Of a DNA stretch of 64,000 bases, positions 15,720 through 60,682 are shown one piece after another; position 1 is the stretch's first letter, and each line of letters opens with the position of its first letter. A model generated the notes under the pieces. That model saw only the letters and a list, made by a program, of their open reading frames with translations, was not told the DNA's origin and ran no database searches. This stretch comes from Octopus vulgaris (lineage: Eukaryota): the NCBI GenBank assembly GCA_951406725.2, contig OX597815.1, forward strand, positions 6,076,001-6,140,000, read 5' to 3'. Made by a program: the position numbers and the translations under genes.

Positions 15720-17548
15720 TTAGCCATACAGGGCTGCACACAGACGGGACAAATTACAAGGTAGAGCTTTTCTTTTTGGGGACAAAAAAGGGGGTTTGGT
15801 TTTCGATCAAAAGGGATCGTAAAAAGAAAGAAAGAGGAAAGCAAAAAAAGGGAGGATAAGAATAAAAGGAAAAAGAAAAAAAAATCGATCAATAGGGATC
15901 GTTATCACAGAAATGTCAATATAAAGTGTAAAGGGGAGGACAGGTGAGGTTTACCTGTGGAAAGAAAAACCTATGGAAAAGACCACGGTAACCTCGGTCA
16001 ATAATGTCACATGTTACCACATTTATTTGCAAGTAAATAACTCTGTTTTAATTTTTTCCGGGTTCATAGGATCATGCCCAAGGTGGCTTCGTCATTCATA
16101 TGTGCCATCCTTGCTACATTCACCCATCTTTTTTTTAAACATTCGCTAGACAAAACTTGCCTCTTAACTCTCACTTTCCTTTTTCAAGTGATACTTGAAG
16201 AAGTTGATGAGAGATTGACCAGAGAGGAAAGTGCTTGTCTCTAATCCTTTCAGACGCGTCCACCAGATACATTCTTTCGCCATAGCCACAAGGATGATGA
16301 AAATAGCTCTTCCTTCCCGTTTGAAGGAAGGAGGCGTGACGATATTGACGATAGACTCGCTGATAAACCGACACGTCCCACACGTGACAGCAGTCGTTCG
16401 ACATAAGCCCACAGGTGGGAAATTGTTGGACACTGCACGAGTGCGTGCAGAACGGTTTCGTCGCTCTAACCGCATCTGGGGCAGGTCGGCCCCGTGTTTC
16501 TCGAGCCGTGTCTGTAGAGCTTATCCCGAACGGGTAGCGCTTCACGGTAGCACTGCCAGGCCAGGAATCTCTGGAAGTTGTCCATAGGTCCCGGCCCGAA
16601 AGTCGTCTTGAACAGGCAGGTCAGGTATTCCTCGTCGACGCCCAGGTTCGCCCCGGGCTCGACGTCGTACCTCCCCTCCACTAATCCCCTATAGAATGCT
16701 TTGGTTGCGTTGAAGTCACTCAAGGTCGACCCGGGACGGCAGAGTTGCTTGAGAGCAACGCGACACTCGCGGTGCCATTCGCCCTTCCTCGGCCTCTTTT
16801 TGATCCACGACTGCAGTTCGGTCATGGAGACGAGTTGCGGGAAAGCGTGCCTCACAAACGGCGACCACACCTGTTCACCGTCGTCTACGTAGAGCCAGAG
16901 ATGTCGCAGTCTCAGCACGTGTCTGCGCATCATCAACCACGGCATGCCCAGCCCTCCTTTTAGCGGGTGTTGACAGCAAATGGATCGCCTGACCATCGGG
17001 ACGCATCCTTTCCACAAGAAGCGAAAGAAAATGTGTTCTAGTTTGATGATGGTAAGGTCGGGACAAGGCACGACGGTCAGGCGGTAGTAGATGAAGGACG
17101 CGATGTACGAGTTTGCCACCTCCGCCCGACCTTTTAGGGACAGTTTCCTCTCGGCCCACTGCCGGGCGAGAGTGACCGCCCTACTCGTTATCTCGTTCCA
17201 GTTTTTCTCCATTTGGAGGTCCGGACCAAACCAGACCCCGAGCAACTCGACCGGACCGTCGGTCCAGCGTCTCACGGCGGAGGCGCTGGTGTACGGCATG
17301 GGCTTGCTTCTCCAGGTGCCAAGTCGCAAGCCCACTGACTTTTCCCGGTTAATTTTTGCTCCTGTCACCGCTTCGTAGTCTTTCAGTGTCTCGCCGACCA
17401 GGTCGATGTGTTCGTGGCTAGACACTATGACGGTGACGTCGTCCGCGTATGCAGACACGCTCGTCCCGCATCCCAATTCTCGCGGGATGCCTCTCAGAGT
17501 TGCCAGCTTCCGCAATAATGGTTCGAGAGTCAATACGTAGAGAAGCGA
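15720..17548 (-). mobile_element. 5'-truncated L1/Tx1-clade non-LTR retrotransposon inserted in (GATA)n
   Basis: RT motif VSAYADD, thumb LLGVWF, GGLG motif, C-terminal CPRC..ETVLH..C zinc knuckle; GATA repeats abut both ends. Confidence 0.9.
16060..17548 (-). pseudogene. Tx1-like ORF2 remnant (RT C-terminal half plus zinc knuckle); stop at 16466-16468 and later frameshifts
   Basis: ORF 16466..17533 (355 aa) continues in ORFs 16250..16438 and 16164..16475; downstream end approximate. Confidence 0.85.
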
Positions 17549-18149
17549 GATAGATAGATAGATAGGTTGGGGTGGGTTGCAGCTGCCTACCTCGGTTGGT
17601 ATGGCATCGAGGTAGATACAGCCACCCTCGTTAACGGGGACAAAACCCGGATATAAAACACTGGATGATGATGATGATGATATACATATATATACAAAGA
17701 AACATACATCAATATGCTTGCATGTTTGTGCTGTTGCTGTACTTTGGGAGGGTCATTTTGCTAATAAAAGCACGCGCCTTTTTGTTTTCTTATAATTAAT
17801 CATCTACTTAACTAATTAACTAATCTGTTTCTCGACTAATCGCTTGATTAATCCATCAATTAGTTTGATAGAGTCCTTTGGTCGCCCTCTGTGACATCAT
17901 CTATGACGCATCCTCGTCCATTCCAGGTACAACGTCTGTTTTATTACACGATTTCACACAGGGAGACTTTTGCACGGCCATTGCTGTCGATAAATGAGTC
18001 ACCGTTGATTCGATTCGTCTCAGAATCCTTACAAATCGGAGTTACAGTTTATTGTTAAACATTTCCACTGAATGCAACTTCCGTTGTTTAACGTACTTAA
18101 TGGCACAAAAGATGCACCGCAATTTCAGCAGCGAATAGTCAGGTAAAGA

Positions 18150-21138: not shown

Positions 21139-21250
21139 ATGGAAGTGACAAAGGAGCAGATTCAACATATTTTGCTTCATGAGTTCAATAAAGGCAACAA
21201 CGCAACGGAAATTCCGAGGAATATTAATGCAGTCTGTGGGGATTGGACAA
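21139..21250 (+). pseudogene. Mariner transposase N-terminal HTH fragment
   Basis: [35 protein letters not shown] resembles the Mos1-type HTH start. Confidence 0.75.
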
Positions 21251-21382
21251 CGGGAACGTGAAACTCAGGGTCAAAGATTTTTGTGATGTTTTTGCAGCTT
21301 AAAAAACAAAAAGCATATTACTCTACCTTCGGTATTCGAGTACTATCTTATCCACCTTGTTTTGCATTTATGTGTTTACTCG
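21250..21382 (+). mobile_element. Single arm of the 48435-family hammerhead element (core disrupted)
   Basis: ACG-GGAA-CGU-GAAAC-UCAGG-GUC then GCATATTACTCTACC...TTATGTGTTTACTC, homologous to 48590-48720. Confidence 0.7.
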
Positions 21383-22958: not shown

Positions 22959-23062
<104 letters not shown>

Positions 23063-23306
23063 TTAAATGGGATTTAGAAATCAGACCGATTTCCTCATTT
23101 CATGATTTTTTATCTTTATCTGACGAGATAAATTTCGGACGATATGTAATACGTTGTAATATTAAACAATCATTTATATTCACGATGACTCTGAACCATC
23201 TGGTGTTGAAACGATCGTAATGAAAAAATAAATCTTACACCTACGCCTCCGATTTTCAACTTATCATATACACGTGACTGTAGCACTATGTCATTATATT
23301 GGTAAT

Positions 23307-24819: not shown

Positions 24820-25950
24820 TTACACAACCTTACACCGTCTAGCACGATCTAACCTCACATGCTTTAGTACGGCCTAACACGGCCAAGCGGAGCCTAATAC
24901 AGCTTCACGCGGTCTAACACGATTTAACGGCATCACACGACCTCATACGTTCTAACACGGCCTTATACAGCCTAAGACAGCCTCCTGCAGTCTGATATAA
25001 CTTAACACAGTTTAACACGGCCTATCACAGCCTCACATGCTCTAACATGGCCTATCACAGCCTCACATGCTCTAACATGGCCTATCACAGCCTCACATGC
25101 TCTAACAGCATCTCGAAAGAGTCCGGAAGCTGGCTACCCGCATGGTTCTTGGTCTCAAGCATTTGTCTTATGAAGAAAGGCTGAAGACGCTCGACTTTTA
25201 TTCTCTAGAAAAACGACGTCGCCGTGGTGGTCTCATTCTTGCTCACAACATCATAAGCGGAAAGTGTAACCTCTCGAAAGAGCTGTTCTTCACTCCTGCT
25301 CCAGAGCGTCGGCTTCGGGGTCACTCCGAAAAGCTCTATCTGCGACGATTTCATCTCAATCGAAGGAGAGGGGCTTTCTCCGTCCGGGTTGCGGATCCGT
25401 GGAATAAGCTGCCGGACGAGATAGTGAAGATGCCGACGACCGCTCGGTTCAAAGTCTCCCTTGACCACAAGTGGCCTGAACTCTTTACATTAACACTACC
25501 CTATACATAACTCCATGTCCCCCTACATGGCCTTGCTTTTTGCTTTTTGAGCCAAAAAATTAACTAACTAACATAACCTAATATATCTTCACACGGTCTA
25601 ACATTGCCTCATGAGGTCTAATATGGCGTAATACAACTTCAAACGGCCCATATGCTTTACACGGTCTAACACAACCTCACACGGTCTAACACAACCTCAC
25701 TCGGTCTAACATAGCCTTACGAGGTCTAATGTAGCCTAATAAAACTTCAGATAGTCTAACAGCTTTACGCGGTGAAACACAGTCTCACGCGGTCTAACAT
25801 GGCCTAATAAGACCACACACGGTCTATAGGCTTTACATGGTCTAACACAGCCTCACCCGGTCTAACATAACCTGATACAGTCAAACAGTGCTTCACTCGG
25901 TCTAACACAGCCTCACACTAACATTTTCCCACAAGATTTAACACAACCTG
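24820..25950. repeat. Degenerate ~20/30-bp minisatellite (CACGGTCTAACACAGCCTCA-like), split by a CR1 insertion
   Basis: Recurrent GGTCTAACA; three tandem copies of CCTATCACAGCCTCACATGCTCTAAC at 25021-25106. Confidence 0.8.
25107..25572 (+). mobile_element. CR1-clade LINE 3' end (ORF2 C-terminus, 3' UTR, (TAAC)n tail)
   Basis: LSYEERLKTLDFYSLEKRRRRGGLI...LRGHSEKL...FSVRVADPWNKLP is the typical CR1 C-terminus; stop at 25510. Confidence 0.9.
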
Positions 25951-27284: not shown

Positions 27285-28090
27285 AATGTATTTGGCCGAA
27301 AATATATTTAGTCGATAATACGAGGGTGAGTCAAAAAATATTGCCATTTTGTTTAGGACAGGTATAATTACCAACACAGGAACATGTATCATACATCAAA
27401 ATGAAGCTTATTATGAGTTTATTGTTTTTCCTTTTGGCAAGAATGACCCCTTGAGCATCCCAAAAGACAGTCGCCATGATTTTTCCAGATGACTTTTGCA
27501 TCTTGAACTTTTTCGGTGGTGGTGACGTAGAGTGGCACCATTCCATTGACTGCCTCTTTGATTCCGGTTCATAATGATGAACTCATATTTCATCCCCTGT
27601 TACAACCCTTCGAAAGGAGGTGTTGTCTCTTTGACTTTGTAGTGAAGAAGCGACTCAAAGAACAATCAACAGAATTTTACGGGGCAGGGATACATGCTCT
27701 CGTTCAAAGGTGGAACATTGCTTTCGAGAGAAACGGTGACTATGTTGAGAAGTAGGGATGTGATCCACAGAGGACCAGCTTCATTTTGATGTATGATACA
27801 TGTTCCTGTGATGGTAATTATACCTGTCCTAAACAAAATGACATTACTTTTTGACTCACCCTCATATATTTCGTTAAAAATATCTTAGTCATTGGTCGAA
27901 AGTATATTTGGTCGAAAATATATTTGGTCGAAAATATATTTGGTCGAAAATATATTTGGCTGAAAATTATATTTACCATTGGTCAAAAATATATCTGGTT
28001 GAAAATATTTGATTGAAATATATCCGGTCGAAAATATATTTGGTCAGAAACACATTGTGTTGAAAATGTATTTGATCAAAAATATATAAC
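27285..28090. repeat. 16-bp minisatellite (TATTTGGTCGAAAATA) interrupted by the mariner
   Basis: Units present on both sides of the transposon. Confidence 0.8.
27321..27864. mobile_element. Rearranged non-autonomous mariner with ~88-bp inverted ends and TA TSD
   Basis: TA|CGAGGGTGAGTCAAAAA ... TTTTTGACTCACCCTCA|TA; transposase remnants on both strands. Confidence 0.88.
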
Positions 28091-29073: not shown

Positions 29074-29257
29074 TACCAATTAAGGACTGAACACGAAAAG
29101 TGGACAGTCAACATGCTAGATATAGACGTCAAATCGCCATTCTCCACAAAGATTATGTTCTCAAATAAAATAAAATTCAGCACAAAATTTTTATATATAT
29201 ATATATATATATGTGGGTACAGGACATAAAAAATAACGTGAACAAAATGAGAAAGTT

Positions 29258-29420
29258 AGGGGTTGTGAATCCAACCCACTAAGGGATAATATTTATCCAA
29301 TATACTGTTGATATAATACCCAATTATTAATACACAAGTGTTTTTAATTGCAATGCAATAAACTTATTTATTGTATTAAATGGGTGAAGGTAAAGAAATA
29401 TTTTACCATTAATTTATATT
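29258..29420 (-). mobile_element. Diverged 3' terminus related to the 57211-58604 element
   Basis: Reverse complement aligns by eye with 58435-58590 (TACCTTTACCCATTTAATACAAT...ATATTGGATA..TTATCCC..GTGGGTTG..TTC..AACCCC). Confidence 0.65.
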
Positions 29421-29523
29421 GCAAATAAGAAAATGTAGGAGAACAATAGTTGGTTCGTCAACTTTAGTACATTGAAAATATTAACTCATTTATTTATTAA
29501 ACTGATAAAGCTATATATATGTA

Positions 29524-29904: not shown

Positions 29905-30023
29905 TGTTATTATAATTATCAGTTTAATAAATACATAAGTTAATATTTTCAATGTCTTAAAGTTGACGAACCAACTATTGTTCTCCTCCATTTTCTTATT
30001 TGCTACATATATATATATATATA

Positions 30024-30234
30024 TATACTTTATTTAAAGCAGCAGAAAATTCAATAAAAACTGGGTTTCACGTTCCCGCTCGTCCGACAAAAAACTGTCC
30101 GACGAATGGGAACGTGAAACCCAAGTAACAGGTTTTGTTGAATTTTCTGCTGCTTTTAAATAAAGTATATTACTCTACCTCTGGTATTTGAGTACTCTTT
30201 TTTCCACCTTGTTTCACATTTATGTGTTTACTCC

Positions 30235-30236
<2 letters not shown>
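30024..30236 (+). mobile_element. Fold-back hammerhead element in (TA)n (hammerhead 30095-30131)
   Basis: CUGU-CCGACGA-AUG(GGAA)CGU-GAAAC-CCAA-GUA-ACAG; left arm is a shorter inverted copy. Confidence 0.75.
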
Positions 30237-30309
<73 letters not shown>

Positions 30310-39865: not shown

Positions 39866-40460
39866 GCCTTTGTACAGCTTCTAATGCTGGAGATGTACCA
39901 CGGCGTCAGCTGTTCACTACCAGTGAACTAAAGTGATATCCCTTATTTTTCGAGCACCATCCGGAGTATTCGAGCGGTTCCAAGCAGTGCTGTTTTCTTT
40001 CTACAAGTGCTCCACCCTTATTGCAGCCCCTATTTGTTCCACGTACTTCTCGAGATTTTTGCTCACTGTTCCCAGGGATATGACAATTATTGGTACCACT
40101 ACCACCTTTTTCATCGGCCATAACTGCTTAACCTTCTAAGCTAACCTGTCATACTTATCGACTTTTCTTTCTTCCTTATCGCATACCTTATTGTCAGCTG
40201 GGCATGCTATGTCTATGATCCAGCATAGTTTGTTTTCTTTCTCAATTAAGACTATGTCTGTCTTCCTATTCTCTATCTCATGGTCGCACTGAATCATAAA
40301 ATCCCATAGGATCTTTGCATTATCATTTTCGATGATGCCTTCGGGTTTGTGGTCGTACCAATTCTTTGCTCTGTCAAGTCTATACTTGCTGCAAAATGCC
40401 CAATGGTCAAGCCTTGCTATATAGTCGTGGCGTCTCTTATATTCCTTCTGGGCCAGTGGA
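39865..40460 (-). mobile_element. R4/Dong-like non-LTR retrotransposon 3' end (RLE domain) ending at (TAA)n/(CAA)n
   Basis: Manual translation: YKRRHD...KILWDFMIQCDHEIENRKTDIVLIEKENKLCWIIDIACPAD..KVDKY...TALLGTARILR; stops and frameshifts present. Confidence 0.85.
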
Positions 40461-40834
40461 ATACATTTATATCAACTCCAGTACTTGACTGGTATTTAAT
40501 TTTATCAACCTTGAAAGTTGACCTCGGTGGAATTTGAACTCAGACCATAAAGAACCGACAGAAATACCACAAAGCATTTTGTCCGACGCGCTAACCATTC
40601 TACCAGATCACCACCTTAGTTATAATTCTACTATATCTATGTTTCGGGTCACAACAATGGGCTTACAAATAGCGACCCCCAAGCAATTATTGATACCGTT
40701 GTTATTAACAACATCTCATATTTTAAGACTGGAAACATTTAAGAGCAGTATCATATTTTAAAGCGGGTATGTGATACACATTACGACTATCAGAAGTAAC
40801 CATAGTAACTATTCTTCATAATTATTTCATAAGC

Positions 40835-44776: not shown

Positions 44777-45909
44777 TGGCTCATATGAGCACAATGTAGA
44801 CACATGCGTGCGCATATATATAGACATAATATACACATTCATACACATATATAGGTACAATGCACACACATATACGTGTGTGTGTGTGTACGTGTGTGTG
44901 TGTGTGTGTACGTAAAGATGCAATACATATACACACAAGGATACACATATATAGGCACAATACGCGCGCGCGAAAATACGATTAAATATATATGCATCCA
45001 CAACACACACACATACAAAGATACAATACACACACAAACGCAATTTAGTAGAAAGACTGAGAACACCTTATCACTAAGTTGACTGACATAGCTTTGAGAA
45101 ACAGCTGAAGGAATTCTGTACTGAAACATAGAAGAGGGTGAGAGACAATTTCGCGGTGGAGAGAAACAAGGCTTTGTATGGACAACTGGATGGCTTTGTT
45201 TGGGATTCAATTCGCCAACTTTTTATAACACAATGGAGTTGTTCTAGAAAGTTCGACCAGGCTATTTAACGCGAAAATTTTAGCTCACTTGGCTTTGATT
45301 AGTCGTGATATGTTCGAGTAGACGTTAATGCCTTTTATGACGGCACATTTTTTCATAACTAGCCTTGCCTTTTAAGGCAGTATGCTATGCCGTGGCAACC
45401 TGACTGTAACAGTTGAAAACTCAGCAGGAGCCTTGCTACAATGGTTTCTAACATATTTCACAATACAAAGTCGCATTGTTAGCGGGCAGAATGCAGTCAA
45501 TTAAGATCAACTCCCAGCTCCTCCCTGAGACATTATTTTAACCATGGAGGGATAAGGACAAAGATGACAACAGCGGGATTCGAAATCAGAAAGTAAAGAG
45601 GAGCAACTAAATACTGCGATGCATTTTGTTCGAACGCTTAATTAATTCGGCCAATCCACCTCACCCCCACCCCGAGCAGAAAAATGTTTGAGAGAGGTTT
45701 TATAACAAAGAGGTCGTCGTGTGTTTGTTGCCTTGGATGTAGGAATATAGTCGTAACATGGGCCAAAACGAGGGACTTCGCAACATTTACAGTCAGCCAT
45801 TTTGTGAAGAATTATATCGCAACACATTAACAGCAGTTCACTTGCGAGTGTTTTATATCAACTGTACCAGATGTATTTACTACCACCACCACCACCACAA
45901 AGGGTGATT

Positions 45910-46162
45910 ATAATCAAAATAAGCAACAAGGATATCCAAGGTAGTGTAGTACACTCGTTTCATGCTACTTCATTTTATTAAACACTGCAAGTATTACATC
46001 ACTTTTAAAATGTCGAGCAATCTTCAGTTCTATTCTATATGCGGCTGAAGATTGCTCGACATTTTAAAACTGATGTAATACTTACAGTGTTTAATAAAAT
46101 GAAGTAGCATGAAACGATTGTACTACACTACCTTGGATATCGTTGTTGCTTATTTTGATTAT
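45910..46162. mobile_element. Fold-back element (~118-bp arms) with extended-stem-II hammerhead motif (46041-46126, +)
   Basis: GCGG-CUGAAGA-UUGCU...AGCAU-GAAAC-GAUU-GUA-CUAC; left arm ends at TCTTCAG; related single arm at ~59508-59580. Confidence 0.75.
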
Positions 46163-46177
46163 GTATGTATGTATATG

Positions 46178-48391: not shown

Positions 48392-48434
<43 letters not shown>

Positions 48435-48436
<2 letters not shown>

Positions 48437-48720
48437 GGAGTAAACACATAAATGTGAAACGAGGTGGAAAAAGAGTACTCAAATAGCAGTGGTAGAGTAA
48501 TATGCTTTATTTAAAGCAGCAGAAAATTCAACAAAACCTGTTACTCTGAGTTTCACGTTGCCGTTCGTCGAGCAAAAACTGTCCGACGAACGGCAACGTG
48601 AAACTCAGAGTAACAGGTTTTGTTGAATTTTCTGCTGCTTTAAATAAAGCATATTACTCTACCACTGGTATTTGAGTACTCTTTTTTTCACCTCGTTTCA
48701 CATTTATGTGTTTACTCCGG
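48435..48720. mobile_element. Near-perfect palindromic hammerhead element flanked by (TA)n
   Basis: ~136-bp arms CCGGAGTAAAC...TTCGTCG / CGACGAA...GTTTACTCCGG. Confidence 0.88.
48579..48616 (+). ncRNA. Minimal type I hammerhead ribozyme (U4C core variant)
   Basis: CUGU-CCGACGA-ACG(GCAA)CGU-GAAAC-UCAGA-GUA-ACAG; all three stems pair; GNRA loop II. Confidence 0.75.
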
Positions 48721-48800
<80 letters not shown>

Positions 48801-48949
48801 TGTATATGTATATGTATGTATGTTTGTATGTATATATATACATATATACACATACATATATATATATAAGAAAATATATATGTATACATATAAGAATATA
48901 TAAAAAACGATATTTACATATTCACACATATTTGTTGGATGGTCGTTGA

Positions 48950-49265
48950 CTATTCACGAGTTCCTCCGCCCTTTGAGCAGCATTCTTTGTCTGATAACCT
49001 CGAATACAAGCCCAAAGAAGTCGCACGACTCTACCGCAACATATCTTCAGATGAAAGGATGAGCGTATATGAGCAGAAGACTATGCATAGATATGTTAGT
49101 AGAAAGCTCCGAGATGATAGTAACATCGAACATCAAAGCAGTCTATCATGGACCAACAACCGGCTTACTACTTCCCACTTTGAAGGGCATGCGTTTGCAA
49201 TCCAGGAACAGGCAATAACATGCACAAAAGGGACAGAAGTGCAGGAAAATATGACAACCGATGCT
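48950..49265 (+). mobile_element. R4/Dong-like LINE internal fragment
   Basis: YEQKTMHRY...SLSWTNNRLTTSHFEGHAFAIQEQAIT, the motif that precedes the CCHC knuckle in RLE LINEs. Confidence 0.65.
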
Positions 49266-49853
49266 CAGAAGACAGTGAACGGGGCGTAGATATAATAGAA
49301 GACACTTGTCCAAGGTGCCACACTCCACGTGGGTACGAAAAGAGATTATTAACCACACAGACATTTGTCTGCGTCTATCAAACTTTCTACAGACAAGATA
49401 AACAAGGCCAAGATGTGTATTCAATGTAGAACTTCGATCATCAAAGAGCGAAGATATTCTCGATCAATAATTGTATTGGAGATGTTAACCAAACGAGAGC
49501 CATTTAAATATGTTAAATTACATGGCGAGAAAGAGATAAGGCGGGTTTTAAATATAATTAACTTGACGCTACGGCTGAATCTTACATCGTACAAACCCCG
49601 TTATTATTTACGTCAGATTTGCATGTTAAATATATATGAAAAAAAAAATAATAAAGGAGAAAGTTGGGAGTTCAGGAAAGTTATTATAAAAGATAACATA
49701 TCGGGAACGTTGTAGATAAGGTTTTAGTGAATAATCTACAGTGAAAACAAACTTAACGAGTAACAAGTGAACCAGTTGGAAACTTGTAGTTAACGATGCT
49801 ATTAACTTATTGCTACACAGAATAAATAAAATACAGATTATACATATGTAATC

Positions 49854-57185: not shown

Positions 57186-57408
57186 AAACAAAAATATATA
57201 TATATATATATAATACTACAAAATTAGAGAATGGAGAAACATACTTAAATCAGTAAAACATCAACTATCCGATGATACTCAATCCATACTTTAATACACC
57301 ATTACATATGAGTAAAGGCAATATATAAAATGAAATGAGGTATACAGTAATAGTAAAAAGATAAAGAGATATAAGTAAAAAATTTCAAATATAATATGCA
57401 AATAAATC

Positions 57409-57524
57409 AAAACTGACAGCTGTTTCGGCAGTGAGGACAGTCATACCTCATTTAACCTATAAGCCATAAAGGCAGGTATAAATGAGGCATTAACAAGGAT
57501 GCCCCACGGCCTCTTCAGAGAATT
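57409..57524 (-). ncRNA. Mirror copy of the 58121-58236 hammerhead
   Basis: Reverse complement within the left arm (TGACAGCTGTTTCGGC...GCCTCTTCAG). Confidence 0.8.
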
Positions 57525-57736
57525 AAATTAAATTTGTTATAATAGTGAAAAATATTATATAATCATATACATATAAATATAAAAATATAGAAATGTAAAA
57601 TATAAAAACTTATACATCATAATGCTACACTTATATAATATAATACCGAAATAACTATATTATTTCGAAATAACTATATTATTTCGATCTTGAAAGGATG
57701 GACTTGGTGCTAACTTAACTGTATCTATTTTTATTA

Positions 57737-57785
<49 letters not shown>

Positions 57786-58120
57786 AGTAATTTTTATTAA
57801 CTTTTATAGCTTTAGAATTTTATGAACTGTACCACGGATTTAATTATTATTTTTCATCTCCATATGTGTTAGCCTTTTTTTATAAAAAAAACTATTAGCC
57901 AAATATGTATAATATCGGTACTTATTAATATTAATATATACACTGTTATATATTTTGTTTTATTTTGTTCTGTTTACCTTCCTTTTTTGTACAAATGTGT
58001 ATTATATTATATAAGTGTAGCATTATGATGTATAAGTTTTTATATTTTACATTTCTATATTTTTATATTTATATGTATATGATTATATAATATTTTTCAC
58101 TATTATAACAAATTTAATTT

Positions 58121-58236
58121 AATTCTCTGAAGAGGCCGTGGGGCATCCTTGTTAATGCCTCATTTATACCTGCCTTTATGGCTTATAGGTTAAATGAGGT
58201 ATGACTGTCCTCACTGCCGAAACAGCTGTCAGTTTT
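58121..58236 (+). ncRNA. Type I hammerhead ribozyme with long branched stem II
   Basis: CUGAAGA (58127-58133), GGC...GCC, GAAAC-AGCU-GUC (site after 58230); palindromic stem III ACAGCUGU; short, interrupted stem I. Confidence 0.8.
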
Positions 58237-58602
58237 GATTTATTTGCATATTATATTTGAAATTTTTTACTTATATCTCTTTATCTTTTTACTATTACTG
58301 TATACCTCATTTCATTTTATATATTGCCTTTACTCATATGTAATGGTGTATTAAAGTATGGATTGAGTATCATCGGATAGTTGATGTTTTACTGATTTAA
58401 GTATGTTTCTCCATTCTCTAATTTTGTAGTATTAATTTACGGTAATATTATTACCTTTACCCATTTAATACAATAGATGAACTGATTGTTTGACAATTTT
58501 TAACATCTATGTATTAATTTTGTTGGGTACCTATCTAGCAGTATATTGGATATATATTATCCCATGGTGGGTTGAATTTTCAACCCCTATCTCATTTTAT
58601 AA

Positions 58603-58869: not shown

Positions 58870-59929
58870 GGCTTACTGACACTTGTGGTGGTGGCACAGG
58901 AAAAACACGTGCCCCCACCTACTACCAGCCATAAGTTTTCCATTTGTCATAGAATAAGAGAGAGTGATATTGTAGGAGGAGGAAGAGGAGGAGATGTTGA
59001 TATGGTTTGTGTTTCTTTCAATTAATTTTAAATATAACAAAGAATTTAGTAAAATAACTTAGTTATCGTTAAGCTAGTGTTAGGGACATAAATTGTGACT
59101 AAGGTTTAATGGAAGATTTTAATTCAAAACTTATGAAAATAAGACATTTGAATTACAGAGCCAGAGGCAGTTTCACCTGGGTGGGTAATGAAAGGGTGAA
59201 GGTAAATGAAGAGGGAGGTGGTTAACGAGTAATTTATAATGACAGTTGTAATTAGACCACACACCAGAACCCTTTTTGAAAAACTTATAACAGGAAACAA
59301 ATGTAATTTGTTGGTGGCACAAAAATGAAATTAGTTTACAACTGCACCAGACATGTAGCTCCAAATATCTTTGATCTTTTACTTGCTTCAGTCATTAAAA
59401 TGCGGCCATGCTGGGGCAATGACTTAAAGAATTTTTAGTTGCTTGTGTCAAACCCAGTACTTATTTCTTTTTTCAAGCCTGGTACTTATACATATATATA
59501 TATATATATAACCAAAAATAAGCAACAAGAATGGATCCGGTAGTTTAGTACAATTGTTTCATACTATAACAATTTATTAAAAGCTGCAAATATTACAGCA
59601 GATATAATATGTCAAGTATTCTTCAGCTAATTTCATATAGGTTTTCCAATAATGTAAAGTTCTCAAATCAATTAGTAACATCCTAGAGAAGGTAAATATA
59701 CCGATAAGGCTGTAGATATGAATTTCAGGAACTTGAAGTAGGATGCCAAGCAAACCAAAATTAAGTTCATATAGGTTTTCCAACAATGTAAAGTTCTCAA
59801 AACAATTAGTAACATCCTAGAGAAATATATATATATATATACATAAGGATAAGATCGTTAATTTAAATTAAATATCGATCTTATCAAGTGGTCAGCATGG
59901 GAATAAAAACCTTCAAAGGTAATAATTAT

Positions 59930-60104
59930 TATTAAAATTATAACTTAGAGTATCTACGAGATACCGCCATGCTGAAAATAGTAGCCAAAATCTGACTCTA
60001 AAACCTTGTGCTGTATGAACATTTAATGTGGTTTTAGAGTCAGATTTTGGCTGCTATATTCAGCATGGCAGTATCTCGTAGATACCCTAAGTTATGATTT
60101 TAAT
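59930..60104. repeat. Fold-back element (~75-bp arms) abutting (TA)n
   Basis: TAACTTAGAGTATCTACGAGATAC...CTCTAAAACC / GGTTTTAGAG...GTATCTCGTAGATACCCTAAGTTA. Confidence 0.85.
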
Positions 60105-60419
60105 ATATATATATATATACAGCATATATTTTTATGAGCTAATAGTTTCATGTGACAAAAATGGCTCAGACAGCATTTCATAACATGTCTGGTACCTTTT
60201 TGCAATCCTCGGGCTCTGCCCACATAGCATAATCAGTTAAAACATATACATATGTATATATATATAGCTCATTATGCTATGTATATATATATATTATTAT
60301 TACATATTTGGGATACTTTTTACATTGCATTAGGAAAGTGTAATATAGTTCTGATAACATAGAATACTTGTTATTCCCTAAGATTTAAAAAAATATATAT
60401 ATATATACATATATATATA

Positions 60420-60621
60420 CGTGACCTCGTGTGTACCGTTGGTGATTTTTTTTTCCTCTGTCTTCCCTTCTCTGGATCTTTCCTTTACCTATGTTTCCGA
60501 CGAAGAGCTCCGCTCGAAACGTTAAACTCTCCTTCTTTCCTTCTTTCCTGAGCGTCCAATAATACTATATTTGTTCCACGTCCTCGCGTTGTTGTGTTTT
60601 TTTGCGCTTTCTTGTTTGGAT

Positions 60622-60625
<4 letters not shown>
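60420..60625 (+). mobile_element. Penelope-like fragment in (TA)n with minimal hammerhead (60493-60527)
   Basis: GUUU-CCGACGA-A-GAGC(UCC)GCUC-GAAAC-GUU-AAAC; palindromic AACGUU stem III. Confidence 0.75.

Positions 60626-60682
<57 letters not shown>

Follow-up and report, generated by a model that had tools for sequence, protein, structure and literature searches.

The palindrome at 48435-48720 is most probably formed by two 3' ends of a Penelope-like element (PLE) of the Hydra clade, each about 150 bases long and joined head to head within a (TA)n microsatellite, with the mirror arm made anew at insertion and not inherited as part of a fixed repeat. We give this reading a probability of about 0.85. 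An earlier note on this DNA had seen here a hammerhead-bearing retroelement end with its inverted copy, and not a Tc1/mariner MITE; public contigs and the likeness to Hydra-clade elements bear this out and narrow it to Hydra-clade PLEs. The insertion pattern itself is already published, and the novelties are small ones: the U4C core of the hammerhead, a conserved tail hairpin and a mapped two-end structure. The points weighing against the Hydra-clade reading include the C at core position 4, a comparison made by eye, a tail of 66 nt, a folding z-score near zero, the null result with Rfam and the lack of a PLE frame in the window, which is the whole 64-kb stretch of DNA that was analysed.

Architecture of the palindrome

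According to BLASTN within the window, 48435-48720 is a fold-back inside (TA)n with arms that are 97.8% complementary over 139 nt and a 13-nt spacer. The palindromic form and the related copies, found here at 30026 and 21249, had already been noticed in the earlier note. The host DNA around the palindrome in the 64-kb window is that of an animal and is rich in microsatellites and in SINEs, which seem to be of octopus type. The features of the palindrome are:

48405-48434, no strand: (TA)n microsatellite, left flank and putative target
48435-48570, minus strand: inverted arm (the left-arm match starts at 48433), starting at core position C4 and finishing at the long 3' end
48571-48582, plus strand: spacer of the palindrome, which is the 5' strand of the extended helix I and pairs with 48613-48624
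48583-48589, plus strand: hammerhead core CCGACGA (U4C variant), a descriptor match
48590-48599, plus strand: helix II of 3 bp with a GCAA tetraloop and A10.1-U11.1
48600-48612, plus strand: GAAA and the near-palindromic helix III segment ACUC-A-GAGU (48603-48611), with the predicted cut after A48612
48613-48624, plus strand: 3' strand of helix I, with G48617 unpaired and variable (folding and public contigs)
48650-48654, plus strand: internal TA-like site at which the short 3' end recurs; in other copies (AT)n comes next
48655-48720, plus strand: optional tail of 66 nt (public contigs and window comparison)
48656-48680, plus strand: tail hairpin ACTC-TACC-loop-GGTA-bulge-GAGT-ACT (descriptor), with counterparts found by eye in Hydra-clade consensuses
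48721-48772, no strand: (TA)n microsatellite, right flank

The inverted arm starts at core position C4 and is therefore without C3 and without the 5' strand of helix I. From the predicted cut site it is 108 nt to the long 3' end and 42 nt to the short 3' end at 48654.

The hammerhead motif and its predicted folding

The motif of the right arm has the layout of a type I hammerhead. The descriptor used to search for it was written after the motif had been seen and allows C or U at position 4; it matched 1 of 20,000 shuffles of the right arm. Across the window it found three CCGA cores and two CUGA cores, where 100 shuffled windows averaged 0.02 and 0.03, respectively. The core reads C3 C4 G5 A6 C7 G8 A9 and not CUGANGA, so that the hammerhead consensus (C3 U4 G5 A6 N7 G8 A9 ... 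G12 A13 A14, NUH) fails at one position, U4C. Moreover, A-U replaces G-C at 10.1-11.1. These deviations were absent from the earlier note. U4C is probably the state of the family, judging from the sequences at 48584, at 30100 and at one independent public-contig locus; the table of family variants has no rows before 48607 and misses a known change at 48594, so the core lies outside its coverage. U4C occurs naturally in a viroid, where it strongly reduces activity in vitro (PMC3088659); in the literature searched, this is the only paper in which it was found. The study of PLE hammerhead variants by Lunse et al. (PMC5785218), which was outside the search, could describe it.

Helix I extends to 11-12 bp and takes up the entire spacer. 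In the isolated 55-mer the pair probabilities are 0.77-0.98 for helix I, 0.77-0.79 for helix II and below 0.1 for helix III as a monomer, and two copies of the helix III segment pair with each other at -7.4 kcal/mol. Three helices around the core are thus predicted, helix III only as a dimer. Weak palindromic third helices that need dimers are described for PLE hammerheads (PMC4209133; PMC6765202). With helix III pairing predicted below 0.1, a cleavage test on the monomer 48579-48616 would probably turn out falsely negative. Within the full palindrome, helix II has a probability of 0 and the hammerhead is predicted not to form; within a transcribed palindrome it would be locked in a 139-bp duplex. 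Folding of the 150-nt right arm is no more favourable than that of 200 shuffles (z 0.15), and the arm's minimum free energy structure is not a hammerhead. There were no hammerhead matches at gathering level to Rfam in the window and none among the 41 weak matches at 48400-48760, which we rejected as hairpin or microsatellite artefacts.

Related copies in the window

BLASTN detected relatives of the arm at 30023-30238 and 21249-21381 and nothing else of weight in the window. These copies and the neighbour of the latter are:

30026-30237, plus strand: copy 2, a fold-back in (TA)n; the left arm (30026-30089, minus strand) ends at the short 3' end, the right arm has the tail, the core is at 30099 and helix III is damaged
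21249-21381, plus strand: copy 3, a lone arm of a second subfamily with 79% identity, which begins within the hammerhead at helix II and ends in a microsatellite
21151-21243, plus strand: N-terminal fragment of a mariner transposase (Pfam HTH_48, E 1.2e-8), outside the element and adjoining copy 3

The right arm of copy 2 (30090-30238) has 94% identity to 48571-48722. Its left arm (30023-30089) is shorter, carries a 7-nt deletion and stops at the same 48654 site as the recurrent short end described below, so that the unequal arm is stronger evidence than the earlier note had made of it. Copy 3 has neither the hammerhead core nor the 5' strand of helix I; it is fused to the mariner fragment with an overlap of 1-2 nt and so is not a clean insertion. 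The argument that this solo arm favours retrotransposition is a weak one, as a deletion product is possible under either model. Each fold-back has (TA)n to its left and right, and copy 3 has it on the 3' side.

Stem II (ACG/AUG-GNRA-CGU), GAAAC and GUH are common to all three copies and stem I (CUGU/ACAG) to both fold-backs, as the earlier note had stated and as the descriptor and folding confirm. Its observation holds. The kept GNRA loop, from which it had read an RNA constraint, is a weak argument and was rejected as evidence, because GCAA and GGAA differ by one substitution and by simple arithmetic a random substitution in the loop keeps GNRA in 1 of 3 cases.

The family in public sequence data

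Out of 24 listed public runs, 20 contain half or more of the words of the arm, under four organism labels. None of the 24 is on record as RNA, and for the run X16 this status is a guess. Four runs were aligned to 48571-48722, with 4,473 contigs placed for X1, 3,634 for X7 and 484 for X16, and nine raw reads for X22. The nine reads come from 1,934 million letters, which is at odds with a high-copy family; in the other runs, one of which has the same species label, the contigs number hundreds to thousands. Summed contig depth was rejected as a measure of copy number. The loose ends discussed below are the best-supported ones, besides which 268 more exist, and the view upstream of the aligned part covers 30 letters.

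The short 3' end at 48654 with (AT)n coming next was found in at least 42 contigs of X1, 35 of X7 and 3 of X16. Since this end recurs and matches the ends of tail-less Hydra consensuses, the unequal arms reflect a second defined 3' end and not a random loss, while microsatellite-assisted deletion at the TA-like site could contribute to the short ends. Two 3' ends therefore recur in the family, at 48654 and at about 48720, and its one-sided tail of 66 nt is optional. Five X22 reads, probably from one locus, have the tail alone behind (TA)n.

Letters that do not mirror the arm were found before 48575/48577 in at least 83 contigs of X1 and at least 74 of X7. These upstream loose ends agree only at 0.49-0.55, so most such copies seem to start within about 20 nt of helix I; a conserved element body upstream was rejected for the same reason. 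The consensus loose ends show a swap between subfamilies in helix I: upstream CATCAC goes with downstream GTGATG, and upstream AAC with downstream GTT. Helix I pairing thus appears to be kept through the subfamily change, if the consensus ends reflect linkage on single molecules. Furthermore, all 10 of the listed variant sites fall on predicted unpaired positions (p ~0.01), including 4 of 4 inside the modules (p ~0.001), in a post hoc count on an incomplete table. At 48694 the two arms of the fold-back at 48435 share a C, compared with T in over 99% of the family depth, which indicates that the arms come from one template or were homogenised.

Six of the eight rows with joints change strand, at differing coordinates. 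At one locus both arms extend past helix I. A joint besides these eight rows reads as head to tail, from 48686 with six further family letters back to 48575, and is found in X1, X7 and X16, probably from a single locus. It would be a candidate for the partial head-to-tail tandems by which endonuclease-bearing PLEs form pseudo-LTRs. A snap-back of the cDNA through helix I roughly fits four of the six opposite-strand joints (48575-48577 to 48633-48645), and not the copies in the window.

Exact-pattern scans for the element had no matches in genome contigs or viral contigs, and none in either of two scans of metagenome contigs. A degenerate pattern of 22 nt matched four times in prokaryote contigs; these matches show no likeness past the pattern and were put down to chance.

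Comparison with Hydra-clade and other Penelope-like elements

The reference set consists of the 26 Hydra-clade rows that Craig et al. 2021 list in their File S2 (PMC8557442). In 20 of these rows helix III has a near-palindromic segment of 9 nt, and in five the form is actc-N-gagt. The segment of Penelope-3_HM is exactly that of 48603-48611, and Hydra-2_aMil also has the ctgt/acag helix I found here. All 26 rows have U4 in the core, in contrast to C4 here. According to the same paper, nearly all Hydra families insert into (TA)n.

The tail hairpin at 48656-48680 lies 43 nt behind the cut site. It is present in all three copies that have a plus-strand tail, three matches compared with 0.01 expected; a looser descriptor matched once in 10 of 200 shuffled windows. 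By eye and without a score, counterparts were found in three of the six new Hydra consensuses in the PMC8557442 supplement, at distances from the cut site of about 43, 38 and 47 nt. The common design is GCTC, an inner stem-loop, a 2-nt bulge, GAGC or GTGC, ACT and a run of T. As far as this comparison by eye goes, the changes are compensatory: the outer pairs are G-C in the Hydra consensuses and A-U here, and the inner stems are altered on both sides, with one mismatch in the hairpin of Hydra-1_Crog. The remaining three of the six consensuses run out some 36-47 nt past the cut, comparable to the short end here at 42 nt. A description of the tail hairpin was not found in the openly available literature searched.

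In summary of the likeness, the 3' ends of Hydra-2_Amil, Hydra-2_Ajap and Penelope-3_HM share with the arm a type I hammerhead whose distance to the 3' end is about 100 nt, a short helix II, a 9-nt near-palindromic helix III, (TA)n targets and a hairpin about 40-47 nt behind the cut, and Penelope-13_HM likewise has an inverted 5'-truncated copy (PMC8557442). The non-coding feature of the clade, a type I hammerhead near the 3' end with a short palindromic helix III, is thus present. Apart from C4, the palindrome differs from Hydra-clade PLEs in having no linked reading frame. A Hydra-clade protein would be a single frame with a PLE reverse transcriptase (RWK and DKT motifs) plus, at the C terminus, a GIY-YIG domain without CCHH, and none of the 358 frames of the window matched GIY-YIG in Pfam; six had Pfam matches, with low-complexity frames and those below 45 aa excluded beforehand. 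The published Octopus families Hydra-1_Obim and Naiad are different from this one: three marker words of the arm (9-12 nt) do not occur in the supplement, and the hammerhead of Hydra-1_Obim differs.

Inverted 5'-truncated copies and one-sided tails, the latter 30-40 nt long, are published traits of PLEs (PMC8557442; PMC3846280), and both are present here, the inverted copy in the head-to-head form. The endonuclease-bearing PLEs with pLTR and tail (Arkhipova et al. 2013, PMC3846280; Frangieh et al. 2024, PMC11167929) resemble the palindrome in the head-to-head inversion, the one-sided tail, the two 3' ends and the hammerhead being copied uncut. They differ in their shorter tail, and the insertion here is reduced to the end module. 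In the lizard PLE, the start sites have no homology to the DNA that is cut (PMC11167929), whereas the short end here is a target-like internal TA site. The minimal PLE hammerheads of Cervera and de la Pena 2014 (PMC4209133) also have a weak palindromic helix III that needs dimers, and the opposite-strand pairs of Schistosoma PLE hammerheads noted there, 100-700 bp apart, resemble the fold-backs. The hammerhead here has no extra base between 9 and 10.1, A-U for G10.1-C11.1, a 3-bp helix II and U4C, unlike these minimal hammerheads; a core variant named in that paper is U3-A8.

Other hammerhead-bearing units and elements in the window

Three unrelated hammerhead families with a fold-back shape occur in this one window. 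At 45909-46176 an unrelated CUGA-core family has the same head-to-head build, turning exactly at its core with a 17-nt spacer. Because this unrelated family also turns at its core, a turn at the edge of the hammerhead is not a trait of a single master copy. A second copy of this third hammerhead family, with CUGAAGA core and long helix II, is located at 59494-59833 (minus strand); the two are 79% alike, and the copy at 59494-59833 is a partial tandem ending in (TA)n.

The fold-back at 57211-58434 belongs to another unrelated CUGA-core family and has 436-nt arms that are 100% complementary, a 352-nt spacer, (TA)n on the left and a tail of about 170 nt on the right (to about 58600) with a homologue at 29244-29438. 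It is a very young PLE-type insertion of another family. Its hammerhead, near 58127-58231, has CUGAAGA, a long helix II and an AGCU loop that is palindromic.

At 60421-60630 there is a fourth, again unrelated unit between TA flanks, whose minimal hammerhead has the core CCGACGA at 60497 as well, so that U4C is present in two unrelated families within one window. At 23060-23260, a single copy of a hammerhead-like motif stands just behind (TA)n (CUGACGA at 23120, palindromic GAUC loop). The small fold-back at 59930-60105 has arms of about 75 nt and (TA)n on one side only, and no hammerhead was seen in it.

Mariner transposase fragments were annotated at 21151-21243 and 27334-27582 (Pfam HTH_48, Transposase_1). 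Fragments of non-LTR retrotransposons are located at 16466-17752, 25106-25510, 40136-40471 and 48894-49289, of which the first alone has a Pfam match (RVT_1). We take them to belong to the clades L1/Tx1, CR1/L2 and R4/Dong.

Alternative explanations

A fixed hairpin MITE of a Tc1/mariner or other TA-targeting DNA transposon, resembling a hammerhead by chance, is very improbable and largely refuted by the public contigs. It would agree with the symmetry of the 48435 copy and its TA on both sides, with the mariner fragment next to copy 3 and with a core that is off consensus and has no Rfam match; it would leave to chance a descriptor match seen in just 1 of 20,000 shuffles and two structured modules that match Hydra-clade 3' ends in order and spacing. 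Moreover, the flanks are long microsatellites and not a 2-bp duplication. The earlier note had named fixed symmetric termini as the finding that would speak against its reading, and the public contigs do not have them: copy 2 is asymmetric at a recurrent end, and the upstream letters are non-mirror in the contigs counted above. Recurrent one-sided 3' ends, non-mirror upstream letters and varied joints are not predicted by a fixed MITE and are predicted by Penelope-type inversion with a 'tail'. The palindromic Harbinger repeat of Xenopus tropicalis (PMC5625713), a hairpin MITE, is also a palindrome of 200-290 bp that would form a tight RNA duplex, whereas the ends here are neither fixed nor symmetric, the centre varies and a ribozyme motif is present.

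We see a small chance that the unit derives from a PLE and is now fixed, spreading whole from a palindromic master (as DNA or hairpin RNA) with its arms kept alike by gene conversion. Both palindromes in the window turn near the core, within a few bases of each other, as a common master would cause, and a single junction with one or two substitutions in each could suffice; the private variants shared by the arms would fit conversion as well. The two spacers differ, however, although the 48435 arms are only 2% apart, other loci turn elsewhere, one with both arms past helix I, and the turn of an unrelated family at its own core shows that the hot spot is not specific to this family. Still less credible than either of these is a SINE or retrozyme with a hammerhead that was mobilised by a LINE other than a PLE, of the R4/Dong, RTE or CR1 type, and inverted by twin priming. 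Twin priming gives non-overlapping inverted pieces and not the duplicated arms seen here, even if LINE-like fragments are present in the window. There is also no poly(A) or LINE-like 3' end. Retrozymes do have type I hammerheads (bioRxiv 10.64898/2026.07.22.740005), and the animal non-LTR retrozymes of that 2026 preprint are, like the arm, non-coding; the preprint proposes that they derive from PLEs. They are defined as tandem arrays, in contrast to the dispersed fold-backs and single arms here: a hammerhead in two or more consecutive units was found in none of the three window copies, and the public contigs contain one partial tandem, the head-to-tail joint.

Proposed mechanism

Purified protein of a lizard PLE cuts and extends both DNA strands, uses uncut RNA and has two start sites that bound the tail; the lizard hammerhead cuts only with protein (PMC11167929). 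The sequence copied here spans the cut site, indicating that the template RNA was uncut. In the proposed insertion of a Hydra-clade end, a PLE protein with reverse transcriptase and GIY-YIG domains, supplied in trans or by a full-length parent, would bind the RNA at the tail hairpin and nick both (TA)n strands, each of which would prime a cDNA. Reverse transcription of the uncut RNA would begin at its end near 48720 or at the internal UA-rich site at 48654, the latter start leaving off the 66-nt tail; the short end may be primed by target DNA pairing with the UA-rich site. Synthesis of both cDNAs would stop at the hammerhead's 5' edge or close to it, and the two would then be joined head to head. 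The stop could be caused by an RNA start in the pLTR or by a stall at the folded or protein-bound ribozyme. The hammerhead itself would act, if at all, on the source RNA, as a dimer or with help of the protein. Self-priming, as proposed for PLEs (PMC3846280), is a further candidate route.

Implications

Fold-back repeats of such shape would be filed as DNA-transposon MITEs, and PLE activity would thereby be understated. The stub isolates candidate cis signals of the Hydra clade, namely the hammerhead edge as a stop, the internal TA site and the conserved tail hairpin, and the origin of PLE inversions and tails becomes testable on 150 nt. That a large family keeps a U4C core raises the question whether PLE hammerheads need to cut at all. 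In the octopus, the fold-backs are candidates, if transcribed, for the unusually abundant near-perfect double-stranded RNA reported there (PMC5625713).

It is conceivable, and we hold it with well under even odds, that the family is a SINE-like parasite of Hydra-clade PLEs of 150-170 nt. Such a parasite would start just upstream of helix I, carry an active U4C hammerhead, use the tail hairpin as a clade-wide binding signal for the reverse transcriptase and prime either from its end or from an internal TA site that mimics the target, and its fold-backs would fill the genome and give double-stranded RNA for A-to-I editing. If this were true, the parasite would represent the smallest PLE substrate in nature and offer a ready-made map of cis elements for a clade without biochemistry.
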